DNA of 64,000 bases from a virus: IMG/VR virus record IMGVR_UViG_3300017971_000007; one strand, written 5' to 3'. How positions within the stretch are numbered: position 1 is the first letter of the stretch; each line of letters begins with the position of its first letter. Made by a program: the position numbers and the translations under genes. This document shows, one piece after another, positions 24,769 to 62,374 of this stretch. The notes below the pieces were generated by a model. It was given only the letters and a program-made list of their open reading frames with translations, did no database searches and was not told the DNA's origin.

Positions 24769-25514
24769 ACCTATATCCGTCATTCTTTGACGAACTAGAA
24801 AAAATCGCTGACTATAGCACAGCAGCAATTGCGCACGAATTAGGCCATGCTCAAGCTTTTGAGCAAAGCAAGATACCTGTAGGTCTAGATATTGGCGGAA
24901 GGGCGGCGATAAAATTAGTAGGCAATCTCGCATCATACCTTTCGACTCTACAAGGTAAGCCTGGTTTGGCCGCAATCTCATCGTTAGTAGCTGATTCCCC
25001 GACATTAGTAAGTGAGGGAAGAGCAAGTTACAAGGCCTTGAAGTCCCTGAAAGAAATGGGAATCAGTGAAGACGACTACAAGACTACCAGAAAGAATCTA
25101 GCCAAGGCATTCGGGACGTACATGATTCCAGCTGCAGCCAATGCTCTTACTAGAGCCGGTGCCTCGCATTTGATGAAGAAGGGTGTCGTGGGCAGGAGCC
25201 CCGATTCATTGGCTGGGACATTAATGACTGAATCGGTTATCGGTATGTTAGGTTCTGGAGCACTGAAAAAGTCATTCGACAAAACAAGGAAAGACTCGGT
25301 GTTAAGTAGAGAGCAGGTAGAGCAGTTAAAGAAGCAGATGGGAGTAGCTACTGGATTTTACAAGGCCAAGAAATCCCTACAATCAGATGCGTATATGCCT
25401 CCTCAACCAAAAATTCTTAGGAAGCCCATCGAGAGAAGTTTAAAGCCGTACCTGAGAGAGAAATCGAAATCTAAAGAGATTGTAGAAAAAGGCGGAATAT
25501 TGCTTTTGGATTAG
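24750..25514 (+). CDS. HExxH zinc metallopeptidase-like protein (YugP/neutral Zn peptidase-like) with SFFDELEKIA leader
   Basis: AIAHELGHA motif plus downstream PTLVSEGRASYKAL...L.KAFGTY (candidate third-ligand Glu segment). Confidence 0.7.
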   Translation: MDRQALDLYPSFFDELEKIADYSTAAIAHELGHAQAFEQSKIPVGLDIGGRAAIKLVGNLASYLSTLQGKPGLAAISSLVADSPTLVSEGRASYKALKSLKEMGISEDDYKTTRKNLAKAFGTYMIPAAANALTRAGASHLMKKGVVGRSPDSLAGTLMTESVIGMLGSGALKKSFDKTRKDSVLSREQVEQLKKQMGVATGFYKAKKSLQSDAYMPPQPKILRKPIERSLKPYLREKSKSKEIVEKGGILLLD

Positions 25515-25518
25515 GGCT

Positions 25519-25809
25519 ATGATTACTTCCTTACTTAGTTCCTTTCCGTTGTACGCCGAGCTGGGGAAACTTGGTATTGTCGGCGTTGTTGTGGGCGTTC
25601 TTATCTATTTATTAGTGCAGAGTCGAAAAGAGGTCAGGCATCTGCTTTCCTCGAATGAGAAGTCAGCAACTGACTACATGAAGCACATAGATGAGCTGAC
25701 TAAAATCACAATAGAGACTAATTGGGAGTGCAGTAAGGCCATGACAGTACAGGCTGAGGTCCTGCGCTCATTTGAGAGAATCATCGACGGACAGAGGCGA
25801 GACAAATGA
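25519..25809 (+). CDS. single-TM coiled-coil protein (holin/antiholin-like)
   Basis: LGIVGVVVGVLIYLLV hydrophobic segment followed by a helical charged region. Confidence 0.45.
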   Translation: MITSLLSSFPLYAELGKLGIVGVVVGVLIYLLVQSRKEVRHLLSSNEKSATDYMKHIDELTKITIETNWECSKAMTVQAEVLRSFERIIDGQRRDK

Positions 25810-26117
25810 ACGGTTTCAAGAAAACAATCGAGAGACTTGGACTAGTAGAAAAAGGGGTAATCGATGAACTCAAATTGGGGGGCGAGGAGCTTCTAGATTA
25901 TCTCGTCCAAAAGAAGATACTTGATAGTGAGTATCTTCCAATTATCAAGGAAGTGGCCGAGGATGTAGGAAGCGAGAACCAGCTTCAAGTTCTTAGGGGG
26001 GAACAGAAGATACTGAAGGTTCAGTGCTCTCACGTGATCAAGAAATCGGCGAAGATAATTGCTAGGATGAGAGATGCTCCTATCCCCAAGAAACATGATC
26101 TAGTGGCAGTAAAATGA
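25806..26117 (+). CDS. hypothetical protein
   Basis: 103 aa, ATGA overlaps on both sides. Confidence 0.6.
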   Translation: MNGFKKTIERLGLVEKGVIDELKLGGEELLDYLVQKKILDSEYLPIIKEVAEDVGSENQLQVLRGEQKILKVQCSHVIKKSAKIIARMRDAPIPKKHDLVAVK

Positions 26118-27514
26118 ACTCATCATTCTTCGACGAATTAACAAAGATAGCAGAAGAGCATAAACTACAAGGACATACTAATTTCCAGGGTATTCCGATT
26201 GCCGTAGAGAATAGGAAAGGGTCTGTTAGGAAAGGAACAGATTCTGACGGGAATGAGTGGCGAACGGAGATGAAGTACCCGTACGGGTATGTGAAGGGGA
26301 CGAAGGGGGCTGATGGGGAAGAAATCGATGTCTATGTCGGTCCTAATAAAGAATCCCCTAATGCTTTCGTAGTCCATCAAAAGGACAAGGATACCGGGAA
26401 GTATGACGAGGATAAATGCTTTCTTGGGTTCGATTCCAAGAAAGATACTAGAGAGGCTTTCCTGAAACACTACGACAGCCCGAAATTTTTGGGGCCTATA
26501 TCCAAGGTTCCGATAGAGAAGCTAAAAGAAAAAATAAGAGAAGGTAAGCAGCTGACGAAAATCAGTTCTTGTGTGGAATTTGAGAAAAATGCTGTCGACC
26601 CCCTCACGTTGGCCGGATTAGGGGCCTTGTCCCATGTAGGCGCGAACCTGGCCGTGAAAGCGGGACACGGAACAAAATTTCTTAGGAATGTGAGAAGCGG
26701 AGGTCTAGCCAGAGGAATCCGTTCTGGAATAGAAGGAAAGCCGCAGGGAATCGGAAGCAGGATGCTGGAAACGTGGGCCGGTCCGGAATTGGTGGCCACA
26801 GAGCATGCTGGAAGAGGTATCGGAAAGATATTAAGAGGGAGAACTCCTCATCAGCAAAAAAGAGCACTAAAGAAATTACGAAAAGCCGTGGCTATGAACC
26901 CAAACTTAAAACATACCCCGATAATGGAGGACGTAGTAGGAGGAGTAACTAAGGCAATAGAGGGAGGATTACCGAAAGCTGGACCGGTTAGAGAAGCTGG
27001 AAGGCTTGCAAGAGCTGCCGCATTCGCTCCAGCACCTATTCTGGCCGCGACCGAACCCTCGGCCTTAGTTCATATGGGAATTAATGTGGCCAGAAAGGGT
27101 GTAGCTCAAAGCAAAGCAGGCAAAGAGTTCATGAGAAAGGGTATGAAACGTGGTCTAGTAGAAGGGGGAGCAGATGCTGCTCCTTCTGTTAGGGAGAGGA
27201 TAATGGATGTCCTAGTTTCTCCAGCCGCCTTGCACACAGAACGTATGGGCAGAGCCATGGCGGACCTTCCTGCAACAGCTAGTAAAGAGCAGTTAGCTAG
27301 ATTAACCGGAGCTAGCCATAGTTTGATGGGTCAAAAAAGATTGAGAGGTGCTATCAAGAGGGCACCTAAGGCAGCCGAAGAAAAAATTAAAGGCGAGGCA
27401 AGACAGATTAGAGGCGATATCCAGGAAATGGCCCGTCCGGCTCCAAGGAAGGCTTCTCCAGCACCTTCTGTCGGTGCTACAGATTACGGCATACCATTGG
27501 GAGTAAGATGGTGA
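26114..27514 (+). CDS. inorganic-pyrophosphatase-like (InPase) domain fused to a basic Gly/Ala-rich region, with SFFDELTKIA leader
   Basis: GIPIAVENRKGSVRKG.D.DG.EW...M..PYGYVKGT.GADGEEIDVYVGP...FVVHQ...G.YDEDK.FLGF matches the phage InPase domain pattern. Confidence 0.75.
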   Translation: MNSSFFDELTKIAEEHKLQGHTNFQGIPIAVENRKGSVRKGTDSDGNEWRTEMKYPYGYVKGTKGADGEEIDVYVGPNKESPNAFVVHQKDKDTGKYDEDKCFLGFDSKKDTREAFLKHYDSPKFLGPISKVPIEKLKEKIREGKQLTKISSCVEFEKNAVDPLTLAGLGALSHVGANLAVKAGHGTKFLRNVRSGGLARGIRSGIEGKPQGIGSRMLETWAGPELVATEHAGRGIGKILRGRTPHQQKRALKKLRKAVAMNPNLKHTPIMEDVVGGVTKAIEGGLPKAGPVREAGRLARAAAFAPAPILAATEPSALVHMGINVARKGVAQSKAGKEFMRKGMKRGLVEGGADAAPSVRERIMDVLVSPAALHTERMGRAMADLPATASKEQLARLTGASHSLMGQKRLRGAIKRAPKAAEEKIKGEARQIRGDIQEMARPAPRKASPAPSVGATDYGIPLGVRW

Positions 27515-28083
27515 AAGCAATAACAACCGCGATTATTGTGTATTCTCTCCACATGTTCATGTTCTCCTTTATACACCCGTCAGAGATTGTCGCGCAAGAA
27601 AGGTGTCGTACGCAAAATTATGACAACGCTGACGTAGAGCCTGATTATAGTTGTCCCGGTCCTGGGGAAGATGTCATCATCCCTTCCATGTCGTATAACC
27701 CGTCTAGGGGATTGGTGAGAGGTTCTACTATCCTTCCCATGAACGGAGACAAGATAGTTCTAGGATACGATGCGGTATTAATGGATAAAAACAAGACCAT
27801 CGAACTCGGTCTGACGGTAAAGGGATTGAGGAAATTGAGATGGATGGATTTGAAGTTCGTGAAGAAGATGTTTGAGGTTAATCTCAACGCCGAAAAATCT
27901 GTATTCAATTCGAGATTGGATTTTCAGAAAAGTAGGGTCGAAACGTGCATCAATCAGAGAGATGAGATAAAAAAAGAGCTCGAGAGCTCGAGCAAATGGT
28001 ATAAGAGCTGGCCGGTCGGTGCTATCATAGGGTCAATGGTAACAGCCGCAGTCATGACTGCGGTTTTCGCTGCCGTGGAATAG
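27508..28083 (+). CDS. exported/membrane protein with C-terminal TM anchor (spanin-like candidate)
   Basis: Hydrophobic N-terminus, coiled coil, then KWYKSWPVGAIIGSMVTAAVMTAVFAAV C-terminal anchor. Confidence 0.45.
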   Translation: MVKAITTAIIVYSLHMFMFSFIHPSEIVAQERCRTQNYDNADVEPDYSCPGPGEDVIIPSMSYNPSRGLVRGSTILPMNGDKIVLGYDAVLMDKNKTIELGLTVKGLRKLRWMDLKFVKKMFEVNLNAEKSVFNSRLDFQKSRVETCINQRDEIKKELESSSKWYKSWPVGAIIGSMVTAAVMTAVFAAVE

Positions 28084-28100
28084 TCTTAATTAGGTTAGTG

Positions 28101-28133
28101 AGGGGAGTCCGCGAAAACGGACTCCCCTTTTTT
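28101..28133 (+). terminator. rho-independent terminator ending the tail/lysis operon
   Basis: Perfect 11-bp stem aggggagtccg / cggactcccct, 6-nt loop, then a T run; lies at the convergence of the + and - operons. Confidence 0.9.
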
Positions 28134-33591: not shown

Positions 33592-33602
33592 TGTGTCTCC
33601 TT

Positions 33603-35609: not shown

Positions 35610-35611
35610 GT

Positions 35612-39198: not shown

Positions 39199-39234
39199 GT
39201 AATACCTTCGAGATTCAGCATGATTCCTCCGATA

Positions 39235-39258: not shown

Positions 39259-39270
39259 CGTGAGATGGTC

Positions 39271-47203: not shown

Positions 47204-47211
47204 GAGCTTTC

Positions 47212-48003: not shown

Positions 48004-48004
48004 G

Positions 48005-49897: not shown

Positions 49898-50344
49898 GTC
49901 TATTCCTAGTCTTTCTTTGGATAATTCAGAATCGTCTTCTCCAATTCCATCGAAGACACAATCCCAACATCCGTAAAATCGACTAGGAATACCTTCGCAT
50001 GAGTGAACAATCCAGCTAGTTACATCCCGAACCAAGTCAAATTGCCCACTCTCAAACTCGAAATACCTTACTTCCTCCCTTAGTGGCGTCCCACAAAAGG
50101 AGCATTTTCCTGTCCTCCTACTATCTGCGTCGGATAGATCAAACAGATCTGAGCAACCAGAGCATATGAATTTTTGGTCTTCATCGTCATCAAAAGAATC
50201 CGGCTCGAAGACGATTGCCATTCCTCCGCGAATTCTTTTTGGAGTACCGACCCTAAGTAAAAATGCTTCTAGGCCTACACCGATTTGTCTGCCACAACAG
50301 ATGCAGTACGGAGAACTGTCTCCTGGTATGTCTGAGTTAATCAT
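49889..50344 (-). CDS. double zinc-finger protein
   Basis: CICC, CSGC, CSFC, CWDC: two similar halves. Confidence 0.65.
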   Translation of the reverse strand: MINSDIPGDSSPYCICCGRQIGVGLEAFLLRVGTPKRIRGGMAIVFEPDSFDDDEDQKFICSGCSDLFDLSDADSRRTGKCSFCGTPLREEVRYFEFESGQFDLVRDVTSWIVHSCEGIPSRFYGCWDCVFDGIGEDDSELSKERLGIDLD

Positions 50345-50362
50345 TACTAAAAAAAGCCACTA

Positions 50363-50397
50363 TCTCCTTGCAGCACTCGGTTAATGCTGCAAGGAGA
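50363..50397 (-). terminator. 13-bp perfect hairpin between two leftward genes (terminator/attenuator candidate)
   Basis: tctccttgcagca / tgctgcaaggaga with a 9-nt loop; on the minus strand a T7 run follows after a 7-nt gap. Confidence 0.5.
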
Positions 50398-50416
50398 CCG
50401 ACGAAGAACGCTATTT

Positions 50417-50566
50417 TCACTCCCCTCCGTCCTCGTCCTCGTCCTCCTTTCTCTCATCCTCATCCTGCGGATCCAACTGGCTTTCCAGCCAGTCTTCCGC
50501 ATCCCCCAGGCCTGACAACATGATTATCAGAAATGACAATGCTGTTCTCGTCTTTAGTTTCCTCAA
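50417..50566 (-). CDS. small acidic-tailed peptide
   Basis: TTG start at 50566 with AGGAG RBS, just downstream of the TTCGGTATAAG motif: MRKLKTRTALSFLIIMLSGLGDAEDWLESQLDPQDEDERKEDEDEDGGE. Confidence 0.5.
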   Translation of the reverse strand: MRKLKTRTALSFLIIMLSGLGDAEDWLESQLDPQDEDERKEDEDEDGGE

Positions 50567-50596
50567 TTTTCTTCTCCTAGTTACTGTTTCATTACT

Positions 50597-50624
50597 CTTA
50601 TACCGAAAACGATTCACTGTTTTG
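50597..50624 (-). promoter_or_regulatory. second copy of candidate promoter CAAAA-N12-TTCGGTATAAG
   Basis: Same motif as 44070-44096. Confidence 0.65.
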
Positions 50625-50651
50625 ACTGCACATAAGGCCGTTTGCTAATCT
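50622..50651 (+). promoter_or_regulatory. sigma70-like promoter candidate TTGACT-N18-TAATCT upstream of the RNAP gene
   Basis: Same architecture as 44102-44131, again back-to-back with the leftward motif. Confidence 0.4.
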
Positions 50652-50706
50652 TAGATTGAGACGAGGATCCCGGAGAAGGGCAACCGAGGGACCCAAAGGA
50701 GATACA

Positions 50707-53700
50707 ATGTCTAGACTAGCCCCAGAAGAAAACTTCGAAGCGTTAAAAGAAAAAGTATCAGAAACATTAAAAGGGATATTCCCTATAGAAGGGAAGAATC
50801 AGTCACTAAGGCTGGATGATGTTCTAATCAATGACGATAAAGATATCGATGATTTCAGAACACAGAAGGAGGCAAGACTGAATGGAAGGACGTGGTCCGT
50901 TCCGGTCAGCGCCTCTTTTTCGTTGATAGACAATGAGACCGGAAAAGTAATAAATACTAGGCGGCAGAAAATAATGAACCTGCCAAAAATCACAAGCAGG
51001 CACAGTTACATAGTCGATGGGCAGGAGTATCAAGTCGATAATCAATGGCGGTTGAAATATGGAGTGTATTCCAGAAAGAACGATAAGGGAGAAATAGAGT
51101 CGACGTTTCACACGAGAGGAGCTCCTGGATTTAAACTGAGATTTGATCCAGAATCCTCAAATTTTGTGATGAAGAAAGGAAATTCTGAATTTCCTGCATA
51201 CCCAATTCTCAGGGAGATGGGAGTATCTGACAGCAACATAGAGCAAATTTGGGGAAAGGAGATATTGGAGACAAACAGATCTACTGACCCTAAAAAAGCT
51301 CTTATGAGTTTCCATAGAGCCATTACTGGTACTAAAGCCCAGAATGTGGAGGAGGCGAGAGAGTATATCAAAGATTATATGGCAAAGACTGATATGGATG
51401 AGGATGTAAACAGGATAACTCTGGGAAGGAAGCAAAGTGTAGTTGACGGGAATCTGATGCTGGAGGCGAGCGGAAAGCTGCTGGGAATAAGTCGGGGGAC
51501 TAAGAAACCGGATGTAAGAGATTCTCTCATCTTTAAATCTTTCCACTCTACAGAAGATTTCATTTCCGAGGCCCTGACCAATAGATCTAGAGATATACTG
51601 AAAAAAATAAGAAATAATTTAGACAGAAAGCAGCAGGTAAAAGAAATAATCGGCACTGACTTATTCAACAAGCCCATAGCCCACGCATTCACAAAAACAT
51701 CTCTATCGAATCACGTCGATCAGACGAATCCTTTGGAGATGTTATCTGGAGCAATGAAGACAACGATAATGGGAGAGGGCGGAATAAAGGACGCTCATAA
51801 AATAACTGATGACGCGAAATTGGTCGATGAGTCTCATCTTGGATTCCTAGACCCAATCCATACTCCAGAATCTGATAGAAGCGGGATTACGTTGCACTTA
51901 CCGGTTGGGGCGTACAAGAAAGGAAATACTGTCGTAAATAAGCTTTACAACCTAAAAACCGGGAAGATGGAAGAGGTAGACCCAGAAAAAGCCTATAATT
52001 CGAAAATAGCTCTGCCAGACCAAGTTAAATGGGTGAAAGGGAAACCGGTTGCTCTGCATGACGAGGTAAAGATGAGCGGCCAGGAGAACGAGATTATAAC
52101 TGGATCGTTAAAAGATGCAGATTATGCTGTAACGTCCCCAGTTCAGCTGTTCTCCATCGCCTCGAACATGGTCCCATTTCTTCAAAACAATAGCGGGAAC
52201 AGAGCCACGTATGCCGGAAAGCAGATGGAGCAGGCCCTGTCCTTAAAGCATAGAGAAGAACCTCTAGTCCAGACAGCTATAGTCTCTGGAAGGCCTGAAT
52301 CCAGCTTAAATGAGTTTGTCGGAAGGATTAATTCCCAGAGATCTCCTATAAACGGGGAAATTGTGGAAGTAAAGAACGACGCGATTATTGTGAAGGGAGA
52401 GGATGGAAAGAATAGAGAAGTTCAAATCTATGACAATTTCCCTCTAAATGACGACAAATCATTTATGCACTCAGACCCGATTGTGAAGGTCGGAGACAAA
52501 GTAAAGAAGGGTCAGACGTTAGCTGATACGAATTTCTCGAAAAACGGGAAACTGGCGATAGGTACAAATTTAAAAGCCGCATATATCCCGTTCAAAGGTT
52601 ACAACTTCGAGGACGGGATAGTGATAAGTGAGTCCGCGGCCAAGAAACTCACTAGTGAGCATATGAAGAGAAAGTCCTTGGATGTGACTAGCGAGCATAT
52701 TCAAGACAAAAATAAATTTATAGCCTATGAGAGGGCAAATATAAATCAGGAACAGGCCGACAAGCTCAGTGACGACGGGATCATAAAAAAAGGAAGTCTT
52801 GTAATGCCTGGAGATACGCTAATAGCGGCTTTAAAGAAGAGGGAGGAAACAGACGAGGCTAGAATAAAAGCCAAGATGCACAAATCCCTGGTCAAGCCCT
52901 ACGATAACGTATCTGTGAAATGGGAAAGTGATTATCCGGGAGTAGTTACCGGAATCGTAAAAAAAGGTGGAAAGACTGAGGTCCATGTTAGGACGGAAGA
53001 GCCTGCTGAAATCGGAGACAAACTTTGTGGGAGGTCTGGGAACAAGGGCATTATCACAAGAATAATTCCAGACCATGAGATGCCGAAGACTAAAGATGGG
53101 GAGCATGTCGAAATAGCTCTTAACCCGACTGGTGTAGCAGGAAGAATAAATCTGGGGCAGATTCTGGAAACGGCTGCCGGAAAAATTGCTCAGAAGACAG
53201 GAAAGCCTTACACGGTTCAGAATTTCGATGGGACAGAGGATATGACAGAGAGGGTTTCCAGAGAGCTAAAAGCTCATGGCATAGAGGATAAGGAGGAATT
53301 AGTTGACCCCAAAACCGGAAAAGTTATGGGAAAGGCCTTAGTAGGTCCGCATTATATTCACAAACTAAAACACCAGGTAGAGAAAAAATTAGTAGCTAGA
53401 GCAGGAGGCCCTGGATATCTGTATGACATGAACAAGATTCCGAAGAGTGGTTCAAGACCCGGACTCGGAGCTCAGGCTATGGATGCCTTAGGCATGTACG
53501 CGATGTTAGCGCACGGAGCAAACGCTAATGTTAGGGAGATGGCCACTTATAAAAGTGATGCAGAGAATAATGATAGGCTTTGGTCTTCGATTCAAGCTGG
53601 GGATGTTCTCCCTCCTCCAAGACCATCATTTGCGTACAACAAGTTCATTGATTTGCTGAAAGTAGCTGGGGTAAACACCGTAAAAGAAGGAAACTCCCTG

Positions 53701-56700
53701 AATCTGGTTCCCATAACTGACAAGCAGATACTTGAGATGAGTAATGGGGAAATCAAAGATGCTGGGAGAATTGTAACGGCTAAGGACATTAAAGAGGAAA
53801 AAGGCGGTCTCCTGGATAAGCAAATAACTGGAGGGGTGAGTGGAACGAAATGGTCGCACATAACACTTCCGGAAAAAATGCCCAATCCTATCTTCGAAAA
53901 AAGCATCGTCTCCCTAACTGGAATTAAGGCTAAGGAATATGAAGACATCGTATATGGCAGAAAAGCTATCAATACCAAAACCGGGAAAATAGTTCCTCCA
54001 GAAGATGGAATATCCGGCGGTCCAGCCATAGAGCATCTTCTAAGCAAAGTAGACGTCGGAAAAGAGTTGGAGGCTGCAGAAAAACAACTGAACGACCCCA
54101 ACATGAGAGCGGACAAGCTAGACCCCATAAACAAGAAAGTAAAATATCTGAAATCGCTGAAACGGCTGGACATGAATCCGGTTGAGGCTTACATGACCAA
54201 GCATGTTCCAGTTCTTCCGCCGTCTATGAGACCTATCTCAGTTATGCAGGATGGAACCCTAATCCAAGATGATATGAATGGGGTTTATAAAGGTCTGGGC
54301 CTCGTAGTAAATAAATTCAAGGACGCTGACCCTAGCGTTCTCCCGCAGGAGGATATCAATAACAGACGAGGTTCCATATACGATGCTCTGAAGAGCGTGT
54401 CCGGGCTTGGCGGGTACATAAACAGAGAACATAAGGGAGTCCTAGATATCATAAGTGGTAAATCAGCATCCAAAGACAGTGACCTGAAAAGCGGAAGTCC
54501 TAGAGATTCGTATTTCCAAAGCAAGCTCATAAAAAGGAAACAGGACCTGTCTATGCGCTCCACAATCATTCCTGAGCCTGAATTAAGCCTGGACCAGGTA
54601 GGGATCCCCAGACAGGCGGCAATGGAAATCTACAAACCGTTTGTCATGAAAGAGATTAGAGGGATGACTGGTGTGTCCCCTCTTCAAGCCCAAAAACTGG
54701 TAGAGAAGGGAGATACTCTAGCAAACAGGGCGCTGGAAAGGGTTGTAGAGAATAGACCGCTTCTAATGAAAAGAGACCCAGTTCTTCACAAGTACGGGGT
54801 CCAGGCATTCAAGCCTATTCTCACTAGCGGAAAAGCGATAAAGATTCATCCGCTAGTGACATCAGGATTTAATGCAGATTTCGACGGGGATCAACAAATA
54901 AACACGGTATTCGCGTTAGTTCCTAGAGATATGTATAATCACGATTCTGGATTTTGGGGTGCACGGAAAGTAGGAATGAGCGCAAGATTTAAAGAGACTG
55001 TCGGATATCTAGAGTCCATGGATGGAGAATTCGCGGTCTGTAATTTGGAAGATTTCCCTAGAGAGAAGAAATTAAAATCCAAAGATCATATCGACTTCTG
55101 GACCGTACCCAATGGAATAAAGGTCGTGGCAATGGATGAGAGGACAAATCAACCTGTTTTGGCTGATGTCAGCGGATGGTCATTTCATAGGAAACGAAAG
55201 GTTCAGATTGTAGAGCTCGGCAGCGGCAGACAGATAATAACTGATGATGATGAGAGGGCTGTATATGGAATAGATGTATCTTCATTAAAATGGTGTAGGA
55301 AGAGACCTGATGAATCCAAGAATCAGTTTGTCCCGGTGCTGAGTAAGATCCCTGTTCCGGATGAGCTCATAACACGGATACCGCTTCCAGATTCTCCTCG
55401 TTTGAGAAAGGAAGCTCGTTTAGACGGGCAATTTGGATATTTTTTAGGAACAATGATTGGGAATGGATGGCCTGGAATCTCAAAAGGTGTTCCTAGAGAC
55501 GTCTGCTTTTCTACAGAATATGATTCCGTATATGATGCCTGGTTTGAGTCTCTCCTTTCTGTATTCAAGAAACACCCGAATATCTATTACAGGAGTACAA
55601 CCAGAGGTCAATTTAAAGGATCAGAGGGGTCTGAATCGCAAATTGTTTCCTGTGCCCCGCTAGCGGTTCTAATCAAGGAGTTGATAGGAAGTGGGGCAGA
55701 GAACAAACACCTTCCCCCATTCTATATCTCCGCTCCGAACATATTTATTAAGGGATTGTTAGCTGGTTTGTGGGATACCGATGGTTCTGTTTCCTGGTCC
55801 GAAGGAAAGAGAACTCCACAATTCATGTGTTCATATACATCAAAATCCATTCGACTGGTGCAGGAGATACAACAACTTCTAAGAATGCTAGAAATATCAT
55901 CAACAATTACCTCTACAGTAACGCCTGCTGGGGAGCCGTTTTGGGTACTAAATGTTTCGATTGTTGATTTCCATAGGTTTGGTGGATTCCCTCTTAAGAA
56001 TAGAAGGAAGAAAGAGATACAGGATGAATTTCTGAGGGAGAAGCAGCCAGATTCTTCTATGTCATATAGTCGTTACAGATTGGTTCCTGTCCCATCTGCT
56101 TTAGCAAATGAATTGAGGACTGTTCTTGGTTCGAGTTGCAGGACCTTATACGTTACTTTGTCGAAAGCTATAGAACGTCAGTATGTGTCAAAAGAGACTG
56201 CCGTGAGAATAATTAAGATAGTAGGGGAGAGATGCAGACATCCTTTATACTCTGAATGGAAATCCATCGTTCTTATGAATAACGTCCATTTTGAGAGAGT
56301 TAAGGGAGTCAAGAAAACGGAAATAAGAGAGGACGGATACGACCTTACTGTTCCTGGATACGAGACTTTCATGTCTCTAGACGGAGTAATTCTATCAAAT
56401 ACAATGTCTGCCTTCGTTCCTATCTCTTCCGAGGCCGTATCAGAGGCCGCAAAAATGTTCCCGTCTAGGAACTTGTTTAATCCGGCAACAGGGTCCCTGA
56501 TGTATAAACCCACACTAGAAAGTCAATTAGGACTGTACATGATGTCCAAAGACGGGGACATCAAAGACAAGTCTTTCAAGACCTTCCAGGAGGCCGCCGA
56601 TGCAGCTAAAAAAGGACAGATAGCTTTCACTGATGTAGTGAAGATAGGAAAGGATAAGACTACAGTCGGTAAGATGATGATAGCCAACTCTCTTCCTGAG

Positions 56701-58422
56701 GAGATGCGCCGGGAGATAATTACAGGCGGGGAAATGACGGGTAAGAGACAGGCAGAAATTCTTACTAGAGTAGCTAAAGAGCGTAAGGCAGATTTCGGGC
56801 AGGTAGCGGATAAGTTCAAGGATATGGGAAATACGTATTCCTCAGAAACGGCGTTCTCTCTGGGAATAGAGGACCTAAAAACTGATAAATCCAGACGTAA
56901 TAGGATACTAGAAGAAGCTGATAGACGGGTTAAACAGGCTCTAAAATCAAAAGACCCAAACAAAGCCTTGAAAGATGTGGTCAGTGTCTACGATAAAGCA
57001 TCTGAGAAGATGATTGAGACCATAGAAAAGGAACACGGGAAAAAGCCGACAAACCTATTCAATATGATGAAATCTGGAATCAAGCCTCAGATGGAAGCCT
57101 ATCGACAAATCACCATGGCCCCGATGTTGGTCATGAATGCCAAGGGCGAAGTGATTCCTAATCCAATCAGAAAATCATGGTCTGAGGGATTAGACACAGG
57201 AGACTACTGGACTCAGATGTCCGGAGCTCGAAAAGGTGTCATCCAGAAGGTCCAGTCTGTTAAAGACCCAGGATATTTCACCAAACAAGTAGTAAATACT
57301 GTCATGAACAACAGCATCTTGGCCGAAGATTGCGGAACAAAGAGAGGGATAAGTCTGGATGTGAGTGAGAAAGATATCCTGGACAGATATCTTTCTGAGG
57401 ATATCAAAGTCGGAAACAAGGTCCTGAAGAAAGACACTCTGATAACTCCAGGAGTCAGAGACACTTTGAGGAATAATAAAGTCAATAAGGTATTAGTGAG
57501 GTCACCCTTAAGATGCGAGCACGGAAGGGGTCTATGCAGTAGATGTTATGGACTGGATGAGAATGGAGAAAATGTTACCACAGGGAAGAATGTTGGAATT
57601 GTTAGTGCTCAATCTATAGGAGAGAGAGCGACCCAACTATCTATGAAGACATTCCATTCAGGTGGTGTAGCCCCTGTAGGGGAGAAGTCTAAACAACAGG
57701 CGGCGTTGACTGATGGGTTTAATAGGGTCCAGCAGTTGGTCCAGATGAACAAAACTGTTCCCGGTTCAGCTACACTAAGCACTGTGAACGGTGTCGTGGA
57801 CAGTGTCAGCAAAGACAAAGCCGGAGGATATAGCGTGGTTATTAGCGGAGTCAGGCATTACATACCTCAGGATAGGGGAGAACCGATGGTTTTCTCTGGA
57901 AATAAGGCCGTTCCCATTACCAAGGGATCAAAGATTCAAAAGGGAGCGCCGCTATCTGGGGGTCCGATAAATCCGCATGAGATGTTGCCATTGACTGGAA
58001 TAAACAAGGTCCAGAGTTATGTATCTGGGGCTTTGCATGATCTATATAAGAGTGAGGGGATTAGGCGGAGAAATATCGAAACTGCAGTCAAGAGCATGAC
58101 TAATCTCACCAAGATAAGAAATCCAGGAGATAACCCCGAATTCATAAGAGGGGATTTTGCGCCTACCTCATACGTGCAGGCTCTGAATAAGCAGCTAGTC
58201 AAGGACAAGCGAAAGCCTATAGAGCACACTCCCGTTATCAAGGGAGTAAAAACCATGCCCCTGGACATTCAAACGGACTGGATGGCAAGATTAAACCATG
58301 AACGTCTGACTGATACCGTAATCGATGCAGCAAACCAGGGATGGAAGTCCGATATACACGGAACCCATCCGATTCCGGCTCTGGTCTATGGAGCAGAGTT
58401 TGGCAAAGGAAAACCATACTAA
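50707..58422 (+). CDS. rpoBC: single-polypeptide beta-beta' two-barrel RNA polymerase (bacterial-like), interrupted by an intein-like element
   Basis: beta motifs DQTNPL, TPES, GYNFEDGIVISE, GDKLCGRSGNKG, LNPTGVAGRINLGQ, KLKHQV; beta' motifs PVLPP..RP, RDPVLH, NADFDGD, GARKG, RSPLRC, AQSIGERATQLSMKTFH. Start reassigned to the ATG at 50707 (AAAGGAG RBS). Confidence 0.95.
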   Translation: MSRLAPEENFEALKEKVSETLKGIFPIEGKNQSLRLDDVLINDDKDIDDFRTQKEARLNGRTWSVPVSASFSLIDNETGKVINTRRQKIMNLPKITSRHSYIVDGQEYQVDNQWRLKYGVYSRKNDKGEIESTFHTRGAPGFKLRFDPESSNFVMKKGNSEFPAYPILREMGVSDSNIEQIWGKEILETNRSTDPKKALMSFHRAITGTKAQNVEEAREYIKDYMAKTDMDEDVNRITLGRKQSVVDGNLMLEASGKLLGISRGTKKPDVRDSLIFKSFHSTEDFISEALTNRSRDILKKIRNNLDRKQQVKEIIGTDLFNKPIAHAFTKTSLSNHVDQTNPLEMLSGAMKTTIMGEGGIKDAHKITDDAKLVDESHLGFLDPIHTPESDRSGITLHLPVGAYKKGNTVVNKLYNLKTGKMEEVDPEKAYNSKIALPDQVKWVKGKPVALHDEVKMSGQENEIITGSLKDADYAVTSPVQLFSIASNMVPFLQNNSGNRATYAGKQMEQALSLKHREEPLVQTAIVSGRPESSLNEFVGRINSQRSPINGEIVEVKNDAIIVKGEDGKNREVQIYDNFPLNDDKSFMHSDPIVKVGDKVKKGQTLADTNFSKNGKLAIGTNLKAAYIPFKGYNFEDGIVISESAAKKLTSEHMKRKSLDVTSEHIQDKNKFIAYERANINQEQADKLSDDGIIKKGSLVMPGDTLIAALKKREETDEARIKAKMHKSLVKPYDNVSVKWESDYPGVVTGIVKKGGKTEVHVRTEEPAEIGDKLCGRSGNKGIITRIIPDHEMPKTKDGEHVEIALNPTGVAGRINLGQILETAAGKIAQKTGKPYTVQNFDGTEDMTERVSRELKAHGIEDKEELVDPKTGKVMGKALVGPHYIHKLKHQVEKKLVARAGGPGYLYDMNKIPKSGSRPGLGAQAMDALGMYAMLAHGANANVREMATYKSDAENNDRLWSSIQAGDVLPPPRPSFAYNKFIDLLKVAGVNTVKEGNSLNLVPITDKQILEMSNGEIKDAGRIVTAKDIKEEKGGLLDKQITGGVSGTKWSHITLPEKMPNPIFEKSIVSLTGIKAKEYEDIVYGRKAINTKTGKIVPPEDGISGGPAIEHLLSKVDVGKELEAAEKQLNDPNMRADKLDPINKKVKYLKSLKRLDMNPVEAYMTKHVPVLPPSMRPISVMQDGTLIQDDMNGVYKGLGLVVNKFKDADPSVLPQEDINNRRGSIYDALKSVSGLGGYINREHKGVLDIISGKSASKDSDLKSGSPRDSYFQSKLIKRKQDLSMRSTIIPEPELSLDQVGIPRQAAMEIYKPFVMKEIRGMTGVSPLQAQKLVEKGDTLANRALERVVENRPLLMKRDPVLHKYGVQAFKPILTSGKAIKIHPLVTSGFNADFDGDQQINTVFALVPRDMYNHDSGFWGARKVGMSARFKETVGYLESMDGEFAVCNLEDFPREKKLKSKDHIDFWTVPNGIKVVAMDERTNQPVLADVSGWSFHRKRKVQIVELGSGRQIITDDDERAVYGIDVSSLKWCRKRPDESKNQFVPVLSKIPVPDELITRIPLPDSPRLRKEARLDGQFGYFLGTMIGNGWPGISKGVPRDVCFSTEYDSVYDAWFESLLSVFKKHPNIYYRSTTRGQFKGSEGSESQIVSCAPLAVLIKELIGSGAENKHLPPFYISAPNIFIKGLLAGLWDTDGSVSWSEGKRTPQFMCSYTSKSIRLVQEIQQLLRMLEISSTITSTVTPAGEPFWVLNVSIVDFHRFGGFPLKNRRKKEIQDEFLREKQPDSSMSYSRYRLVPVPSALANELRTVLGSSCRTLYVTLSKAIERQYVSKETAVRIIKIVGERCRHPLYSEWKSIVLMNNVHFERVKGVKKTEIREDGYDLTVPGYETFMSLDGVILSNTMSAFVPISSEAVSEAAKMFPSRNLFNPATGSLMYKPTLESQLGLYMMSKDGDIKDKSFKTFQEAADAAKKGQIAFTDVVKIGKDKTTVGKMMIANSLPEEMRREIITGGEMTGKRQAEILTRVAKERKADFGQVADKFKDMGNTYSSETAFSLGIEDLKTDKSRRNRILEEADRRVKQALKSKDPNKALKDVVSVYDKASEKMIETIEKEHGKKPTNLFNMMKSGIKPQMEAYRQITMAPMLVMNAKGEVIPNPIRKSWSEGLDTGDYWTQMSGARKGVIQKVQSVKDPGYFTKQVVNTVMNNSILAEDCGTKRGISLDVSEKDILDRYLSEDIKVGNKVLKKDTLITPGVRDTLRNNKVNKVLVRSPLRCEHGRGLCSRCYGLDENGENVTTGKNVGIVSAQSIGERATQLSMKTFHSGGVAPVGEKSKQQAALTDGFNRVQQLVQMNKTVPGSATLSTVNGVVDSVSKDKAGGYSVVISGVRHYIPQDRGEPMVFSGNKAVPITKGSKIQKGAPLSGGPINPHEMLPLTGINKVQSYVSGALHDLYKSEGIRRRNIETAVKSMTNLTKIRNPGDNPEFIRGDFAPTSYVQALNKQLVKDKRKPIEHTPVIKGVKTMPLDIQTDWMARLNHERLTDTVIDAANQGWKSDIHGTHPIPALVYGAEFGKGKPY
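54892..56400 (+). mobile_element. atypical intein with LAGLIDADG homing endonuclease (503 aa) inserted after the RNAP catalytic motif
   Basis: In-frame insert between NADFDGD and TMSAFVPIS; HINT-like segments (KVQIVELGSGRQIIT; YDLTVPGYETF...VILSN|T); LAGLIDADG motifs FLGTMIGNG and LAGLWDTDG. Confidence 0.9.
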
Positions 58423-58757
58423 TGGAAGACGAACTTTACATCGCAAAAATGGCTTCAGCTTTTTTGGATGAGATGACGGAGATAGAAAAAGTGGCCTTAT
58501 TGGGAGGGGCGCTGAACTTTTTCAAAGGGGGTTTAAGAGGACTATCCAAAGCCGTCTCGGCTCCAGCTGGAACCTCATTCGCAAGACGTATGGGAGTGGG
58601 AAAAACTGGATTGTGGAATCAGCTCAGTCACGCGTACAAGAGCGGAGCTCAGAAGGGGGGATTTAGGGAGGGTGCTCGTAGAGTGATGGCTCAGAAACCT
58701 GTCCAAATTGCGGGAACCGTGGCCGCTCCCGTAGCCGCGGGTTATGCTCTCGGTTAA
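58422..58757 (+). CDS. small basic Gly/Ala-rich protein with AFLDEMTEIEKVA leader
   Basis: ATG overlaps the RNAP stop (TAATG); MEDELYIAKMASAFLDEMTEIEKVA is followed by an amphipathic peptide. Confidence 0.65.
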   Translation: MEDELYIAKMASAFLDEMTEIEKVALLGGALNFFKGGLRGLSKAVSAPAGTSFARRMGVGKTGLWNQLSHAYKSGAQKGGFREGARRVMAQKPVQIAGTVAAPVAAGYALG

Positions 58758-58759
58758 CA

Positions 58760-59983: not shown

Positions 59984-60339
59984 AGATATCAGAATCTGGA
60001 TTAGAAAATCTTCTAGTAAAATACATAACTACCCTTAAGGCAGTCGCAAAGGATACGATAACAGGAGTGGATGTCTCAAAGGAGACACAACCGGACGGTT
60101 CCACGAAGATTAAACAAGTGCCTAGAAAAGGAGATGTCTACATCCCAAAAAATTTTGCTAGTGCCTTATCTAAAGGAATGGCCAAGGCGATATTCGAGCA
60201 TATCGTGGGATACATAAACAATCCCGTTGTGTCTAAACTCAACGAATTGATAGGACAATACAATCAGCTGCGAAGTGACTGCATTTCAGGAGGAATCATC
60301 ACAACAGCCACGGCAGTCGATGAAATAACAATAAACTAG
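59980..60339 (+). CDS. hypothetical protein next to the spike
   Basis: 119 aa, ATGA overlap. Confidence 0.6.
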   Translation: MKISESGLENLLVKYITTLKAVAKDTITGVDVSKETQPDGSTKIKQVPRKGDVYIPKNFASALSKGMAKAIFEHIVGYINNPVVSKLNELIGQYNQLRSDCISGGIITTATAVDEITIN

Positions 60340-60358
60340 CAGCTATCAGGAGAACAAA

Positions 60359-62374
60359 ATGAATCTTTTTCTGGATGATGTCACTCCTCGGATTATGGAA
60401 AAGATCAGTGCAGCTTTCGCCAGGCTGTCTGAGAATCCTGACGATTGGCAATCTGAAATTACAGATGAACTATACAGGCAAGTTCCGTTTATCGGAGATT
60501 TCGACACGAAGATAATCATGATGGAACTTGACCCAGAGAGAAGATATGCACTAGCGGCCATAAAGCTTAGCAGTAGGCTGAATAAAATCCCGAAACAGGA
60601 GAACGGACACAATCCGTATAGCAATGAAATAAGTCCAGATCTATCTGGACAAAAGACGGCAATAATACCGGTCATCGTACAAGAGGGAAAGATGAGCCCG
60701 TTGGATGTATTTATATCCAACGGAATGTTTCAACCGCTGACGGACAAAAGGCTGAAGAAGGAAATGTTTAGGCCTCAGATGTTCGAGGCGATTGGAGAGT
60801 CACCAGGAACTAAGGACATGACCGAGATGTTGTATCCGCCATATCGAATGGGATTGGGGGGGACGAACTCGTATATGGGGCATATGCAAAAATCCAGCTC
60901 TCCAAATAGGATAATTGACGTTATTCGACATACCCTCAATCAGAATGAGGTGGAGAAGGTATGCAGTGCTATAACCGAGGATGAAGAAACTTTGTCCCTG
61001 TTTATCAGAAATCCAGAGGCCAGTCATTTCATGGACAAGCTGGTGGAGGACGTGAAGACAGTTTCTTCTAGTGAGATGATGAAGACGGCCTCGGGGATGA
61101 TCAAACCCAAAGTCATCCAAATATCAAAAATAGACGGCGGATTCCGTGTTAAGACAGCCAACCCCGAGGCTTTACTTCCAGAGGAAAATGATATCCCAAG
61201 ACCGTTGGCTGAAGAAATGGCTGGAGCAGATGTGGTGAGGAAGGTGGAAAATGGGGAGACTGTGACTATCAGTACGAACAAGGCCTCCAGAGAATCTCTG
61301 GCTGATATTACGGTCAGTGTCGTGGAAGAGTTTGGAGAATATAAGGTCAAGACAAAGGACGGTCGGGAACTAGTCGGATGGGTGTTTCCTCATGTTGTAG
61401 ACCTAGACGGGACCTCACTAGATATTTCTGTTTTCACGAACGGTTCCGAATCTGCTGTCCAGGAGTCAATAGCTGGGAGTCTTGTAGGAAAGGGGACGAA
61501 TTTAATAGACGAGAATCCGAGCGGATTTGGTATTTTCTATTTAGCCAGACAGGGAGGAGCTACTGCCATAGTTCCGGTGAATATTGTGGCAGAAGCTCAA
61601 TCAACAGAGCTGGTTGATGAATACATCTGCGAAACCATGCTTGGGGAAAGAGTGATTATCAAGAAGCTACCGGGTTTGGTTAAGGCCGCGCAGATAGAAG
61701 ATGGTATGTACGCTATCCCAGATGATTGTGGGTGGATTCCCCTCCAAAGAATGACTGAGCTCTCAGAGAATCCGGACGAGTTTATGAAAACTTCAGCCGT
61801 GCGACTCGATTTTGATGCGGTCAAGGTCATGCATGACCACGGCTCTTATTCCATGAAGGGTCGGCACATTGAAAAATTAGCATCTGTGTGCCAGACGAGC
61901 GGTATTTCAGAAGACCAGGCAATATTCAATCTGGCTATTTTGGGTATCCCTTCTGATATATCCAGAGAGAAATTGGCGGAATCGAGGAAATATTCTCATT
62001 GGGTGAATATACAGGGAGCGAAACCAGTAAAGTTGTTGAGTGAGAGAATCAAAGAAGCGAGGATGAAATCCATTGAGTTCGTGAAGAAGGTTCCGAGAAT
62101 GCCGATGTTCTTGAAAGAGGCGGCATTGATTGACGACCCATCGACTGTTGATAATGTCCTCTCTCTGGGATTTCTCAATTCAGAGAATGTATCAACATTT
62201 GTGGAATACATCCCTGATTTGGAAAGAACTGTCTCGAGAATGTGCAATCTCTTGATAGCTTCCAGATTAGGCCTGAAAAATATCATTGACGTGACTGCCC
62301 TGGAACGGCTAATTAAACATATGGATGTGGTAATTAATGGACTAAAAGAATTGTCTCAGTACACAAATGATTAG
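60359..62374 (+). CDS. large hypothetical protein with repeated K-x-A/S sites (probable head/core protein)
   Basis: AGGAG RBS; MEKISA, MMKTAS, FMKTSA, IEKLAS, FLKEAA at apparent domain boundaries. Confidence 0.6.
   Translation: MNLFLDDVTPRIMEKISAAFARLSENPDDWQSEITDELYRQVPFIGDFDTKIIMMELDPERRYALAAIKLSSRLNKIPKQENGHNPYSNEISPDLSGQKTAIIPVIVQEGKMSPLDVFISNGMFQPLTDKRLKKEMFRPQMFEAIGESPGTKDMTEMLYPPYRMGLGGTNSYMGHMQKSSSPNRIIDVIRHTLNQNEVEKVCSAITEDEETLSLFIRNPEASHFMDKLVEDVKTVSSSEMMKTASGMIKPKVIQISKIDGGFRVKTANPEALLPEENDIPRPLAEEMAGADVVRKVENGETVTISTNKASRESLADITVSVVEEFGEYKVKTKDGRELVGWVFPHVVDLDGTSLDISVFTNGSESAVQESIAGSLVGKGTNLIDENPSGFGIFYLARQGGATAIVPVNIVAEAQSTELVDEYICETMLGERVIIKKLPGLVKAAQIEDGMYAIPDDCGWIPLQRMTELSENPDEFMKTSAVRLDFDAVKVMHDHGSYSMKGRHIEKLASVCQTSGISEDQAIFNLAILGIPSDISREKLAESRKYSHWVNIQGAKPVKLLSERIKEARMKSIEFVKKVPRMPMFLKEAALIDDPSTVDNVLSLGFLNSENVSTFVEYIPDLERTVSRMCNLLIASRLGLKNIIDVTALERLIKHMDVVINGLKELSQYTND

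Follow-up and report, generated by a model that had tools for sequence, protein, structure and literature searches.

In bacteriophage T4, capsid-targeting (CTS) propeptides of 10-20 residues are carried by the internal proteins IPI, IPII and IPIII and by Alt (Mullaney & Black, 1996; reviewed in PMC9026906, PMC5694885 and PMC3012670), and are removed by the prohead protease gp21, which also fragments core proteins (PMC5694885, PMC9026906, PMC3012670). In phiKZ and SPN3US, the propeptides each contain multiple cleavage sites (PMC5694885, PMC9026906, PMC3012670). These large phages, whose heads are processed by gp175 and gp245, respectively, carry a virion multisubunit RNA polymerase (Thomas & Black, 2013; PMC5694885), and in this they probably resemble the clade described here.

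The window analysed here comprises 64,000 nucleotides of the virus record IMGVR_UViG_3300017971_000007 and contains several copies of an N-terminal FFDELxKIA leader. We consider it probable, at somewhat better than even chances, that this leader is a capsid-targeting propeptide of the T4 CTS kind, with a Lys-x-Ala site for the clade's own prohead protease at its end. As in T4, a short N-terminal peptide common to unrelated proteins ends in the predicted motif of the phage protease, the motif is repeated in scaffold or core proteins and present at the N-terminus of the capsid protein, the cargoes are varied and exchangeable, and the protease has a predicted gp21/assemblin fold with a catalytic domain apparently bracketed by its own sites. 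In contrast, the leader is unrelated in sequence to the T4 CTS (MKTYQEFIAE), the putative site is phi-x-Lys-x-Ala rather than Leu/Ile-x-Glu, and the clade, known from sequence alone, is not T4-like, with a portal and virion RNA polymerase related to those of Salmonella phage Arash. The likeness to phiKZ and SPN3US would extend to the processing of many head proteins at a short motif and to a very diverged, autoprocessing gp21 relative as protease; however, phiKZ-type sites are S/A/G-x-Glu and their propeptides mostly exceed 100 aa, whereas the clade has a uniform tag of 13-16 aa with a Lys-x-Ala motif.

Leader copies and their distribution

Read from the sequences, the leader has the form M-x(2-8)-[A/G/S]-[F/L]-F-D-E-L-x-K-[I/L/V/M]-A. 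All five peptides listed in the earlier note are present in the window where it placed them, which confirms its observation of a shared leader, and four of its five tagged ORFs stand: those at 24750 and 26114 are canonical, and those at 47212 and 58422 are diverged but kept in orthologues, whereas the ORF at 60359 has no true leader (Table 1). The two canonical cores are identical at nine of ten residues, and because five of these nine are specified by different (synonymous) codons, the conservation acts at the peptide level, as had been claimed. Only three window proteins matched the strict leader regex, every match falling in the first 20 residues. A leader HMM gave E-values of 1.6e-6 for ORF 24750-25514 and 2.3e-6 for ORF 26114-27514, with the next window match at E 0.5; these two scores are not independent, since both leaders are rows of the alignment of 60 leaders (58 from other contigs) from which the HMM was built. 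Support independent of the two rows consists of the 58 other-contig leaders and the score gap to the next window match. The HMM missed the leaders at 47212 and 58422, the latter of which (SAFLDEMTEIEKVA, aa 12-25; A13-A25 at nt 58458-58496) has a 3-residue insertion. ORF 25519-25809 matched the loose core regex only, with a leader HMM score that was not significant. Several of the window leader genes lie outside the head module, where the tail-fibre module ends, amid small membrane-like genes.

Table 1. Features of the window discussed in the text (nucleotide positions within the window).
Feature	Position	Strand	Remarks
Leader-bearing protein 1	24750-25514	+	254 aa; MDRQALDLYP-SFFDELEKIA, then HELGH cargo (possible zinc peptidase)
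Leader core SFFDELEKIA	24780-24809	+	aa 11-20 of ORF 24750-25514
Possible degenerate leader SSFPLYAELGKLG	25519-25809	+	aa 7-19, then hydrophobic segment; weak candidate
Leader-bearing protein 2	26114-27514	+	466 aa; two fused leader-cargo units
Leader core SFFDELTKIA	26123-26152	+	aa 4-13 of ORF 26114-27514
Internal junction VEFEKNA	26573-26593	+	aa 154-160; relic leader tail; candidate cleavage site between two cargo modules
First head-module gene (gp490 family)	44159-45631	+	490 aa; poorly ordered, core/scaffold-like
Leader-bearing protein 3	47212-48003	+	263 aa; diverged leader, then Gly-zipper-rich cargo; directly upstream of portal
Diverged leader SCSEELEKTA	47233-47262	+	aa 8-17 of ORF 47212-48003
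Portal protein	48005-49897	+	30% identity to annotated portal of Salmonella phage Arash; marker of leader-owning clade
Fused multisubunit RNA polymerase (beta + beta') with LAGLIDADG intein	50656-58422	+	Pfam domains; untagged, context only
Leader-bearing protein 4	58422-58757	+	111 aa; variant leader MASAFLDEMTEIEKVA, then Gly-rich basic cargo
Head-module protein (gp671 family)	60359-62374	+	671 aa, phi-x-K-x-A-rich; matches in 18 of the 21 clade records searched

A scan of 2.9 million viral contigs with the pattern FFDELxK[ILVMF]A returned 92 sites, and a reversed-pattern control returned 19 stretches (17 once duplicates were removed). An open frame starting at an ATG no more than 12 codons upstream was present for 54 of the 92 sites (59%) versus two of the 17 control stretches (12%), an N-terminal enrichment over background that agrees with the earlier note. 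A portal of the window type was found in 19 of 28 contigs with an N-terminal leader, including all 15 of those of at least 84 kb, and in none of 19 comparison contigs (nine with non-N-terminal hits and ten control contigs). The leader is confined to one clade of uncultured phages of roughly 180-210 kb, and it is absent from Salmonella phage Arash and Vibrio phage D69, both cultured relatives. Relatives carry from five to at least 13 leader genes, versus about four tagged genes in T4, and the clusters often adjoin the portal. For example, L010 has at least seven tandem genes with the start MNFQxAFFDELxK.A just upstream of its portal, at least 13 leader genes are present in L117, 11 leader hits were counted in G008, and a 61-kb relative has eight hits on the forward strand, none on the reverse strand and none with the control pattern. 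The residue before FFDEL, which was never part of any search pattern, is small (A/G/S/T) in 58 of 58 leaders, and the first Phe, left free in the relaxed pattern, is F in 51 and L in seven of them.

Short motifs do recur by chance, the reversed control still gave hits, and AAA+ Walker B motifs occur among the real-pattern hits, all of which would suit the absence of any shared function, with the copies arising by chance, as paralogous N-termini retained by descent, or as a nucleotide element such as a translation enhancer. This is hardly credible, however, in view of the N-terminal placement, the strict clade association, leader HMM E-values of about 1e-6 with a cargo identity of about 6%, and the synonymous codon differences between copies, which occur on the coding strand only.

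The earlier note had also raised double-glycine bacteriocin leaders as an alternative. Like the leaders of class II bacteriocins processed by C39 peptidases, those of the clade are short, acidic and N-terminal, with E-L-x-x-I spacing. A non-virion sorting or export signal more generally (a double-glycine leader, a membrane or lysis targeting helix, or a host-secretion tag) would also suit the many cargoes with Gly-zipper or hydrophobic segments and the small membrane-like ORFs surrounding the window genes at 24-28 kb. Against this, no GG was found after the motif in the leaders examined, neither Peptidase_C39 nor the corresponding ABC transporter was found in the four complete clade genomes (control genomes did score for Peptidase_C39), and none of 185,579 prokaryote species genomes has the exact string FFDELEKIA in an N-terminal position, so the double-glycine alternative was set aside. 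In addition, the acidity of the leader is unlike that of membrane-binding or Sec/Tat signals, and the enrichment of the motif in the head module would be left without explanation, which makes an export signal of any kind very improbable.

Unrelated and exchangeable cargoes

Outside the leader, the aligned columns have a mean identity of 6%, and only eight Pfam families were matched among 66 leader proteins, each by one or two proteins. The cargo of ORF 24750-25514, with HELGH at aa 29-33 downstream of the leader, matched Zn_peptidase_2 at E 3.3e-5 and 24 bits, below the 27-bit cut-off. This cargo family was not found in the four complete clade genomes and is therefore a variable cargo rather than a core function. 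The gene at this syntenic position in G035, a complete genome of a relative, keeps the start MDRQ..SFLDELEKIG but has a different cargo.

ORF 26114-27514 combines a leader and InPase module (aa 1-150; PF18823 at aa 17-141, E 1.5e-45) with a second, Gly-rich cargo (aa 161-466) preceded by a relic leader tail. Its C-terminal 310 aa align with the stand-alone leader protein at 9174-10205 of L117 (31% identity, E 8e-36), and the alignment begins at the leader tail, where VEFEKNA is matched to ELEKQA in the leader of this free-standing homologue. The InPase orthologue in G035 is without a canonical leader, so a given cargo need not always be tagged. Polyvalent or MuF-type minor head proteins reportedly carry InPase and zincin domains. 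The PHROG matches of ORF 26114-27514 are minor head or virion proteins, and annotations from PHROG and tblastn place InPase elsewhere in minor-head or polyvalent virion proteins, so that an InPase cargo is known from head-packaged proteins that are delivered with the DNA. In those systems, one giant protein, presumably MuF-anchored, contains the enzymes as domains, whereas the clade has separate small proteins with their own leaders.

The Gly-zipper match of ORF 47212-48003 is sub-threshold (Pfam, E 6e-4), and its positional orthologues keep near-canonical leaders (AFVDELGKTA in L007, AFVDELEKQA in L008, AFLDELEKIS in G006 and AFVDELEKLA in G035). The orthologue of 58422 retains the leader MATAFLSELSEIEKQG in G035 and was not found in G006.

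Lys-x-Ala sites in head proteins and a candidate protease

The window does not include the protease, the capsid protein or most of the enriched scaffold proteins; these were examined in relatives, the closest complete one of which has 50-68% identity per protein. In G035, which is syntenic with the window, exactly five proteins are enriched for K[ILVMTQ]A, and all of them belong to the head module (7-9 observed versus 1-1.8 expected, p <= 0.0015). The context of K-x-A in the enriched head proteins is phi-x-K-x-A, matching the leader, and this motif is over-represented 5- to 7-fold in scaffold- or core-like head proteins. Two of the families concerned have members in the window. The gp490-family protein, whose Atlas model has a pLDDT of 0.52, contains five K[ILVMTQ]A versus 1.45 expected (p 0.016; G035 orthologue, seven versus 1.08, p 0.0015), and its K-x-A sites at about aa 17, 89, 112 (ELQKLA) and 254 (SSKTAS), conserved in five orthologues, bracket a variable middle. 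For the gp671-family protein, the count is five versus 0.97 expected (p 0.002; G035 orthologue, nine versus 1.35, p 0.0005), and the phi-x-K-x-A sites, namely an N-terminal MEKISA (aa 13-18), MMKTA at about aa 241 and FMKTS at about aa 476, are positionally conserved over about 18 orthologues; from its sequence, this protein is likely a protease substrate. Its N-terminus (LFLDDVTPRIMEKISA, aa 3-18) had been considered as a loose leader. In most orthologues MxLFLDD is followed by K-x-A some residues later, but the spacing varies, and the protein fits the description of a K-x-A-rich head protein better than that of a leader-cargo protein.

In relatives, the capsid protein has a conserved K-x-A site at about aa 25, close to its N-terminus; in the core clade this site has Lys or Arg, and no hydrophobic residue, at K-2. 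The RNA polymerase has no K-x-A enrichment. By analogy it is probably a virion enzyme, the Arash homologues gp206 and gp216 both ranking in the top five proteins by number of spectra in a virion preparation, gp206 first (PMC10585845).

The earlier note had suggested a search for the prohead protease outside the window, and a candidate of 623 aa was found, in relatives only (19 of the 21 clade records searched). A model of its catalytic domain alone (pLDDT 85.7) had only two matches with Z >= 8 among 48,161 representative chains, VZV protease (1vzv; Z 10.0, with 124 residues aligned at an rmsd of 3.4) and T4 gp21 (Z 8.7, with 132 of 165 residues aligned at an rmsd of 2.8); the Foldseek E-values for the assignment were weak (0.07-0.4), and the Pfam S77 and S78 models failed to detect the protein. 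His119 and Ser176 are invariant in the family, and conserved MDKVAA and VMAKLAS sites lie on either side of the folded domain, at the borders of the disordered segments 1-50 and 284-357. Modelling thus supports a predicted clade protease of gp21/assemblin fold. Herpesvirus assemblins (VZV, HCMV, HSV-2), although eukaryotic virus enzymes with no sequence similarity to the candidate, are the best structural match. Their sites have Ala at P1, then Ser (V/L-x-A↓S). The ...K-x-A-[S/A/G] ends of the clade resemble these sites, but P3 is hydrophobic in assemblin sites and would be Lys here if the cut falls after Ala.

These sites bear on whether the leader could instead be an uncleaved docking helix that anchors proteins to the portal, core, inner capsid wall or tail and is retained, as encapsulin cargo-loading peptides are. 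Although F, F, L, I and A would lie on one helical face and leader genes cluster next to the portal, such a helix leaves unexplained the multiplication of K-x-A in scaffold-like proteins, the sites bracketing the protease domain and those at disordered linkers flanking variable segments, and we regard it as quite unlikely.

A possible label for head loading and trimming

The leader might also be a cleavage signal only, that is, a propeptide or junction for the prohead protease that keeps enzymes inactive or splits polyproteins, with incorporation through the cargo or other contacts. Its phi-x-K-x-A tail is the sole part shared with the scaffold, protease and capsid protein sites, and further copies of the motif are internal, at junctions between modules. 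However, FFDE and the preceding small residue are conserved as strongly as K-x-A yet absent from the internal scaffold sites, a pattern that implies a second function for the leader; a prohead-confined protease would reach only substrates already inside, and the T4 precedent combines targeting and cleavage in about 10 residues. We therefore hold cleavage alone to be unlikely, if deserving of some weight.

We thus favour a capsid-targeting propeptide, and the portable, Lys-x-Ala-ended rather than Glu-directed tag of the earlier note gains support from the clade-wide leaders, the phi-x-K-x-A enrichment and the gp21/assemblin-fold protease. In our proposal, the amphipathic FFDEL part would dock tagged proteins in the core of the assembling prohead, and the L-x-K-x-A tail would be the recognition motif of the clade's protease. 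After assembly, this protease would trim the leader, cutting after Lys or Ala, fragment scaffold- or core-like proteins (the gp490 and gp671 families and acidic scaffold-like proteins downstream of the window), cut a short N-terminal piece off the capsid protein and release its own catalytic domain. The trimmed cargoes, which in the window would be the HExxH protein, the InPase enzyme, the Gly-zipper proteins and small basic proteins, would remain in the head and presumably be delivered alongside the DNA. If this reading is true, the leader is a "load into head, then trim" label as in T4, with a different, lysine-based cutting rule.

Layout of the window and its leader genes

The window, part of a large phage genome, can be divided into three blocks (see the table). 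Its RNA polymerase is encoded by one fused ORF, whereas the subunits of the cultured Salmonella phage Arash are encoded by two genes, gp206 and gp216; the orthologue in the complete genome G006 (2103 aa) lacks the intein. In an Arash virion preparation both subunits were within the top five proteins by spectra, with gp206 the highest (PMC10585845), and it is thus probable that much protein is packed into the heads of the window's lineage. Split matches inside open frames of 1000-2000 aa were also observed for the portal of G013, G017, G025 and G030 and for the candidate prohead protease of G016, G017 and G023, which suggests inteins in these essential head genes in several members of the clade (the uncultured phages with a window-type portal and the leader). 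Searches for tRNAs and Rfam elements gave no match anywhere in the window.

Features of the window, in window coordinates
Feature	Position	Strand	Remarks
Tail and baseplate block	1-28 kb	plus	
Replication block	28-44 kb	minus	
Head block	44-64 kb	plus	
Small hydrophobic-segment ORFs	24078-24473, 24457-24768, 25519-25809, 27508-28083		Interspersed with two leader genes where the tail-fibre block ends; possible lysis or membrane proteins
Leader SFFDELEKIA	aa 11-20 of 24750-25514		
Leader SFFDELTKIA	aa 4-13 of 26114-27514		
Relic leader tail VEFEKNA	26573-26593 (aa 154-160 of ORF 26114-27514)		Junction of two fused units
Portal	48005-49897		In the head block; 30% identical to its annotated counterpart in Salmonella phage Arash and to Vibrio phage D69
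Stretch from portal stop to likely RNA polymerase start	49898-50706		About 800 nt without a convincing ORF; may have a regulatory or promoter role
RNA polymerase beta and beta' fusion	50656-58422		Single 2588-aa ORF; LAGLIDADG intein at about aa 1503-1915

The earlier note had placed five leader-like peptides in the window, and all five were located as claimed. The two closest copies, SFFDELEKIA and SFFDELTKIA, are identical at nine of ten residues, five of which are specified by different codons, in agreement with what had been said of them, and these synonymous differences rule out an element acting at the nucleotide level. A strict regular expression run over the window proteins found the motif in three only, each time inside the first 20 residues. 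A leader HMM built from 60 leaders (alignment A2) matched the two closest copies at E ~1e-6, partly by construction since both are among the 60 rows, and the next match had an E of 0.5. The diverged leaders of the 47212 and 58422 ORFs are real, as orthologues at the same positions retain leaders (AFVDELGKTA, AFVDELEKQA, AFLDELEKIS or AFVDELEKLA for the former and MATAFLSELSEIEKQG for the latter). In contrast, the fifth proposed member, the 60359 ORF, bears only a loose likeness to the leader at its N-terminus (MNLFLDD...MEKISA), and its orthologues retain MxLFLDD and K-x-A with variable spacing between them.

Distribution of the leader and diversity of its cargoes

IMG/VR was scanned with a degenerate DNA pattern encoding FFDELxK[ILVMF]A, which matched 92 stretches; the same pattern read backwards, used as the control, matched 19. 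Sites were counted as N-terminal when an in-frame ATG lay no more than 12 codons before them and the frame stayed open for 45 codons or more beyond; 54 of the 92 distinct sites qualified versus 2 of 17 in the control, which is the enrichment over background that the earlier note had named as a test. The leader consensus is M-x(2-8)-[A/G/S]-[F/L]-F-D-E-L-x-K-[I/L/V/M]-A, with complete divergence beyond it. Five to nine copies were found in each of the complete genomes G006, G007 and G035, eight in G005 and at least 13 within 10 kb in G008; copies in relatives lie on the coding strand only, and the control pattern gives none. A distant relative (L010, portal 32% identical) carries at least seven consecutive small genes beginning MNFQxAFFDELxK.A directly upstream of the portal.

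The leader is also restricted to one group of phages. Among contigs chosen solely by the presence of an N-terminal leader, a window-type portal was detected in 19 of 28, including all 15 of at least 84 kb, and in none of nine contigs with non-N-terminal matches or ten reversed-pattern contigs. The FFDEL leader was not found in the cultured relatives Arash and D69. A leader-only query, which is very short, gave only three candidates in a set of 5.8 billion proteins, and the leader peptide strings were not found in the literature. As a separate observation, a DUF3008-like N-terminal segment (..SKAQQRFMF..) precedes an internal motif, VVNELNKLA or AVFDELEKLA, in L010 (6105-6545) and in the G008 locus L117 (10570-11235), and thus the leader-like motif can also lie farther into a protein. 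Many Nostoc assemblies (L147-L161, MAG contigs) contain, within very short open frames, the exact coding string for FFDELEKIAVDKDILS; this is probably a repetitive element, non-coding or a remnant, with no relation to the phage leader.

At least 58 distinct leader proteins were collected, with a cargo identity of about 6%. Pfam searches over 66 leader-pattern proteins returned eight families only, each in one or two proteins: InPase, DUF5661, DUF6321, HNH, Gly-zipper, a sub-threshold zinc peptidase, and Lon lid and AAA, the last two being false positives from AAA+ Walker-B motifs. In the window, the InPase domain (PF18823) occupies aa 17-141 of a 466-aa protein (154.8 bits against a gathering cut-off of 26.8, E 1.5e-45). 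The other FFDEL-tagged protein contains HELGH and scores 24 bits against the 27-bit cut-off of Zn_peptidase_2 (PF04298), so its cargo is tentatively a peptidase; an ESM Atlas structure search with it returned nothing informative. The remaining cargoes are a Gly-zipper-rich protein (47212 ORF) and a small Gly-rich basic protein (58422 ORF). A role of the HExxH protein as the leader peptidase was rejected, as it is missing from four complete clade genomes.

Cargo modules appear to have been swapped and fused behind a constant tag. G035, a complete 178-kb genome with terminal repeats, is syntenic with the entire window; where the window encodes the HExxH protein, G035 has a gene that retains the leader (MDRQ..SFLDELEKIG) ahead of a different cargo, and the G035 InPase orthologue is without a canonical leader. 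Two leader-cargo units have been joined in the window's 466-aa InPase protein, whose last 310 residues share 31% identity (E 8e-36) with a leader protein that stands alone in G008; the alignment begins exactly at VEFEKNA, opposite ELEKQA, the leader tail of the G008 protein. The alternatives weighed, in a list headed ALTERNATIVES, include chance or paralogy; the N-terminal bias speaks against it, as do restriction to the clade and this cargo diversity. The list also includes a double-glycine leader of the bacteriocin type, which the earlier note had raised and doubted; that doubt was borne out, as the leader has no GG, residues beyond K-x-A are variable, a C39 peptidase (PF03412) was not found in four complete clade genomes by a search that scored in seven control genomes, and the exact string FFDELEKIA heads no protein in 185,579 prokaryote species genomes.

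The Lys-x-Ala motif in head proteins and a candidate prohead protease

When the proteins of G035 were shuffled one by one, K[ILVMTQ]A was enriched in exactly five (7-9 copies versus 1-1.8 expected, p <= 0.0015), all of them in the head module: the orthologues of gp490 and gp671 (the 490-aa and 671-aa head-block proteins of the window, the latter being the 60359 ORF), a 623-aa protein and two low-complexity acidic scaffold-like proteins. The window proteins themselves contain five copies each (0.97 expected, p 0.002 for gp671; 1.45 expected, p 0.016 for gp490). The sites read hydrophobic-x-K-x-A, often with Glu preceding Lys, and match the leader end L-E-K-I-A. In the gp490 family conserved sites flank a variable, poorly ordered middle, and in the gp671 family they lie at the N-terminus and in two linkers. 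The clade capsid protein, identified via its match to the Arash major capsid protein (MCP) gp226, carries E/D-K-I/L-A at about residue 25, directly ahead of its conserved body, and the Arash and D69 capsid proteins have LVKEAG and LTKEAG at the corresponding place. Judged from these recurrences, the leader tail is probably a head-maturation motif. PDB sequence and ESM Atlas searches gave no usable match for gp490, and gp671 was rejected as the capsid protein, the MCP matching that of Arash being farther downstream. The MCP, the protease and most scaffold proteins lie outside the window and were examined in relatives.

A prohead protease had been expected outside the window, and a candidate was found in relatives: the 623-aa protein, present in 19 of 21 clade records searched. 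AlphaFold2, run on 16 orthologues, predicts with confidence a domain at residues 51-283 that has disordered stretches on either side, and the pLDDT reaches 85.7 when the domain is modelled by itself. The top Foldseek matches were herpesvirus assemblins and T4 gp21, at weak E-values of 0.07-0.4; on structural re-alignment the top 35 rows were all assemblin or gp21 (T4 gp21: Z 9.8, rmsd 2.7, 133 residues). When 48,161 representative chains were scanned independently of Foldseek, only the VZV protease (10.0) and T4 gp21 (8.7, 132 of 165 residues) reached Z >= 8. His119 (HHxNK) and Ser176 (SMG) are invariant and have a spacing of 57, similar to the distance between the catalytic residues of T4 gp21. 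Two sites, M-D-K-V-A-A (12 of 16 orthologues) and V-M-A-K-L-A-S (14 of 16), mark the two edges of the folded domain, a pattern that would be expected of a self-processing prohead protease, and about six further conserved K-x-A-type sites follow it. A family profile search found no relative among PDB sequences, and thus the protein is predicted to be a gp21/assemblin-fold prohead protease by fold only. Neither the protease nor the scaffold proteins of the G035 head module could be assigned to a family by PHROG and Pfam scans; the Pfam S77 and S78 prohead-protease models had no match in five clade records, the S77 result being uninformative because that search scored in no control genome either.

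The cultured phage Arash encodes a homologue of this protein, gp222 (E 1e-26), flanked by LTKQA and LEKVA in the same arrangement, and its gp220 and gp225 are enriched in K-x-A (p 0.001), so the predicted cutting rule seems older than the FFDEL tag. The Arash head locus (L187, 142-166 kb) contains gp220, gp222, gp223, gp225 and gp226, and the K-x-A pattern is also seen in the head protein gp223.

Comparison with known packaging systems and a proposed model

Experimental knowledge of how proteins are addressed to the head interior comes mainly from T4, with its capsid-targeting sequence (CTS), and from phiKZ-like phages, both of which cut after glutamate. In T4, internal proteins and Alt reach the scaffolding core by way of CTS propeptides of 10-20 residues, which gp21 then cuts off; gp21 also fragments core proteins and trims capsid proteins, and equivalent processing occurs at S/A/G-x-Glu in phiKZ and SPN3US (PMC5694885, PMC9026906, PMC3012670). 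Like the CTS, the clade leader is a short N-terminal peptide common to otherwise unrelated proteins of one phage, its end recurs by motif statistics in scaffold or core, protease and capsid proteins, and the clade encodes a predicted gp21/assemblin-fold protease. Unlike the T4 motif, Leu/Ile-x-Glu with the cut C-terminal to Glu, the clade motif is phi-x-K-x-A; F-D-E of the leader fits phi-x-E, yet it is not the tripeptide repeated in scaffold proteins. Nor does the clade motif agree with the phiKZ gp175 sites (S/A/G-x-Glu): at its core, in leader and internal sites alike, is an invariant Lys, and Ala stands at the second position after it.

The simplest model, which we consider the probable one, is therefore a T4-like 'load, then trim' capsid-targeting propeptide, in which FFDE would be the address and L-x-K-x-A the site of a protease whose predicted specificity centres on Lys and Ala rather than Glu. 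Sites in T4 and of assemblin have a hydrophobic P3, and the same placement here would put the cut after Lys, where tryptic proteomics would miss it; a cut after Ala would instead follow from the likeness of the frequent ...A-[S/A/G] to the assemblin site, which is cut between Ala and Ser. Cleavage without targeting, in which the shared K-x-A sites would be cut but the leader would carry no address, seems unlikely, and docking without cleavage, in which the leader would bind and stay on, slightly more so.

More broadly, we see about an even chance that a phage lineage with a virion RNA polymerase has re-tuned a gp21/assemblin protease from Glu/Ala to a Lys-centred phi-x-K-x-A and coupled it to a portable label of 13-16 residues, FFDELxKIA, with free swapping, fusion and multiplication of cargoes (5 to at least 13 per genome); such a system would be a second 'package-and-trim' code that arose independently and differs in sequence. 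New here, and found in an unrelated uncultured clade, are a putative address label and a predicted cutting rule that are both distinct. If the model is true, the label could serve as an orthogonal packaging tag for loading foreign proteins into capsids, and the Lys-x-Ala rule seen in the head genes of cultured Arash makes the predicted cutting rule accessible in the laboratory. In addition, the leader yields, from sequence, a list of candidate injected effectors, both enzymes and membrane-active peptides, for the whole phage group.
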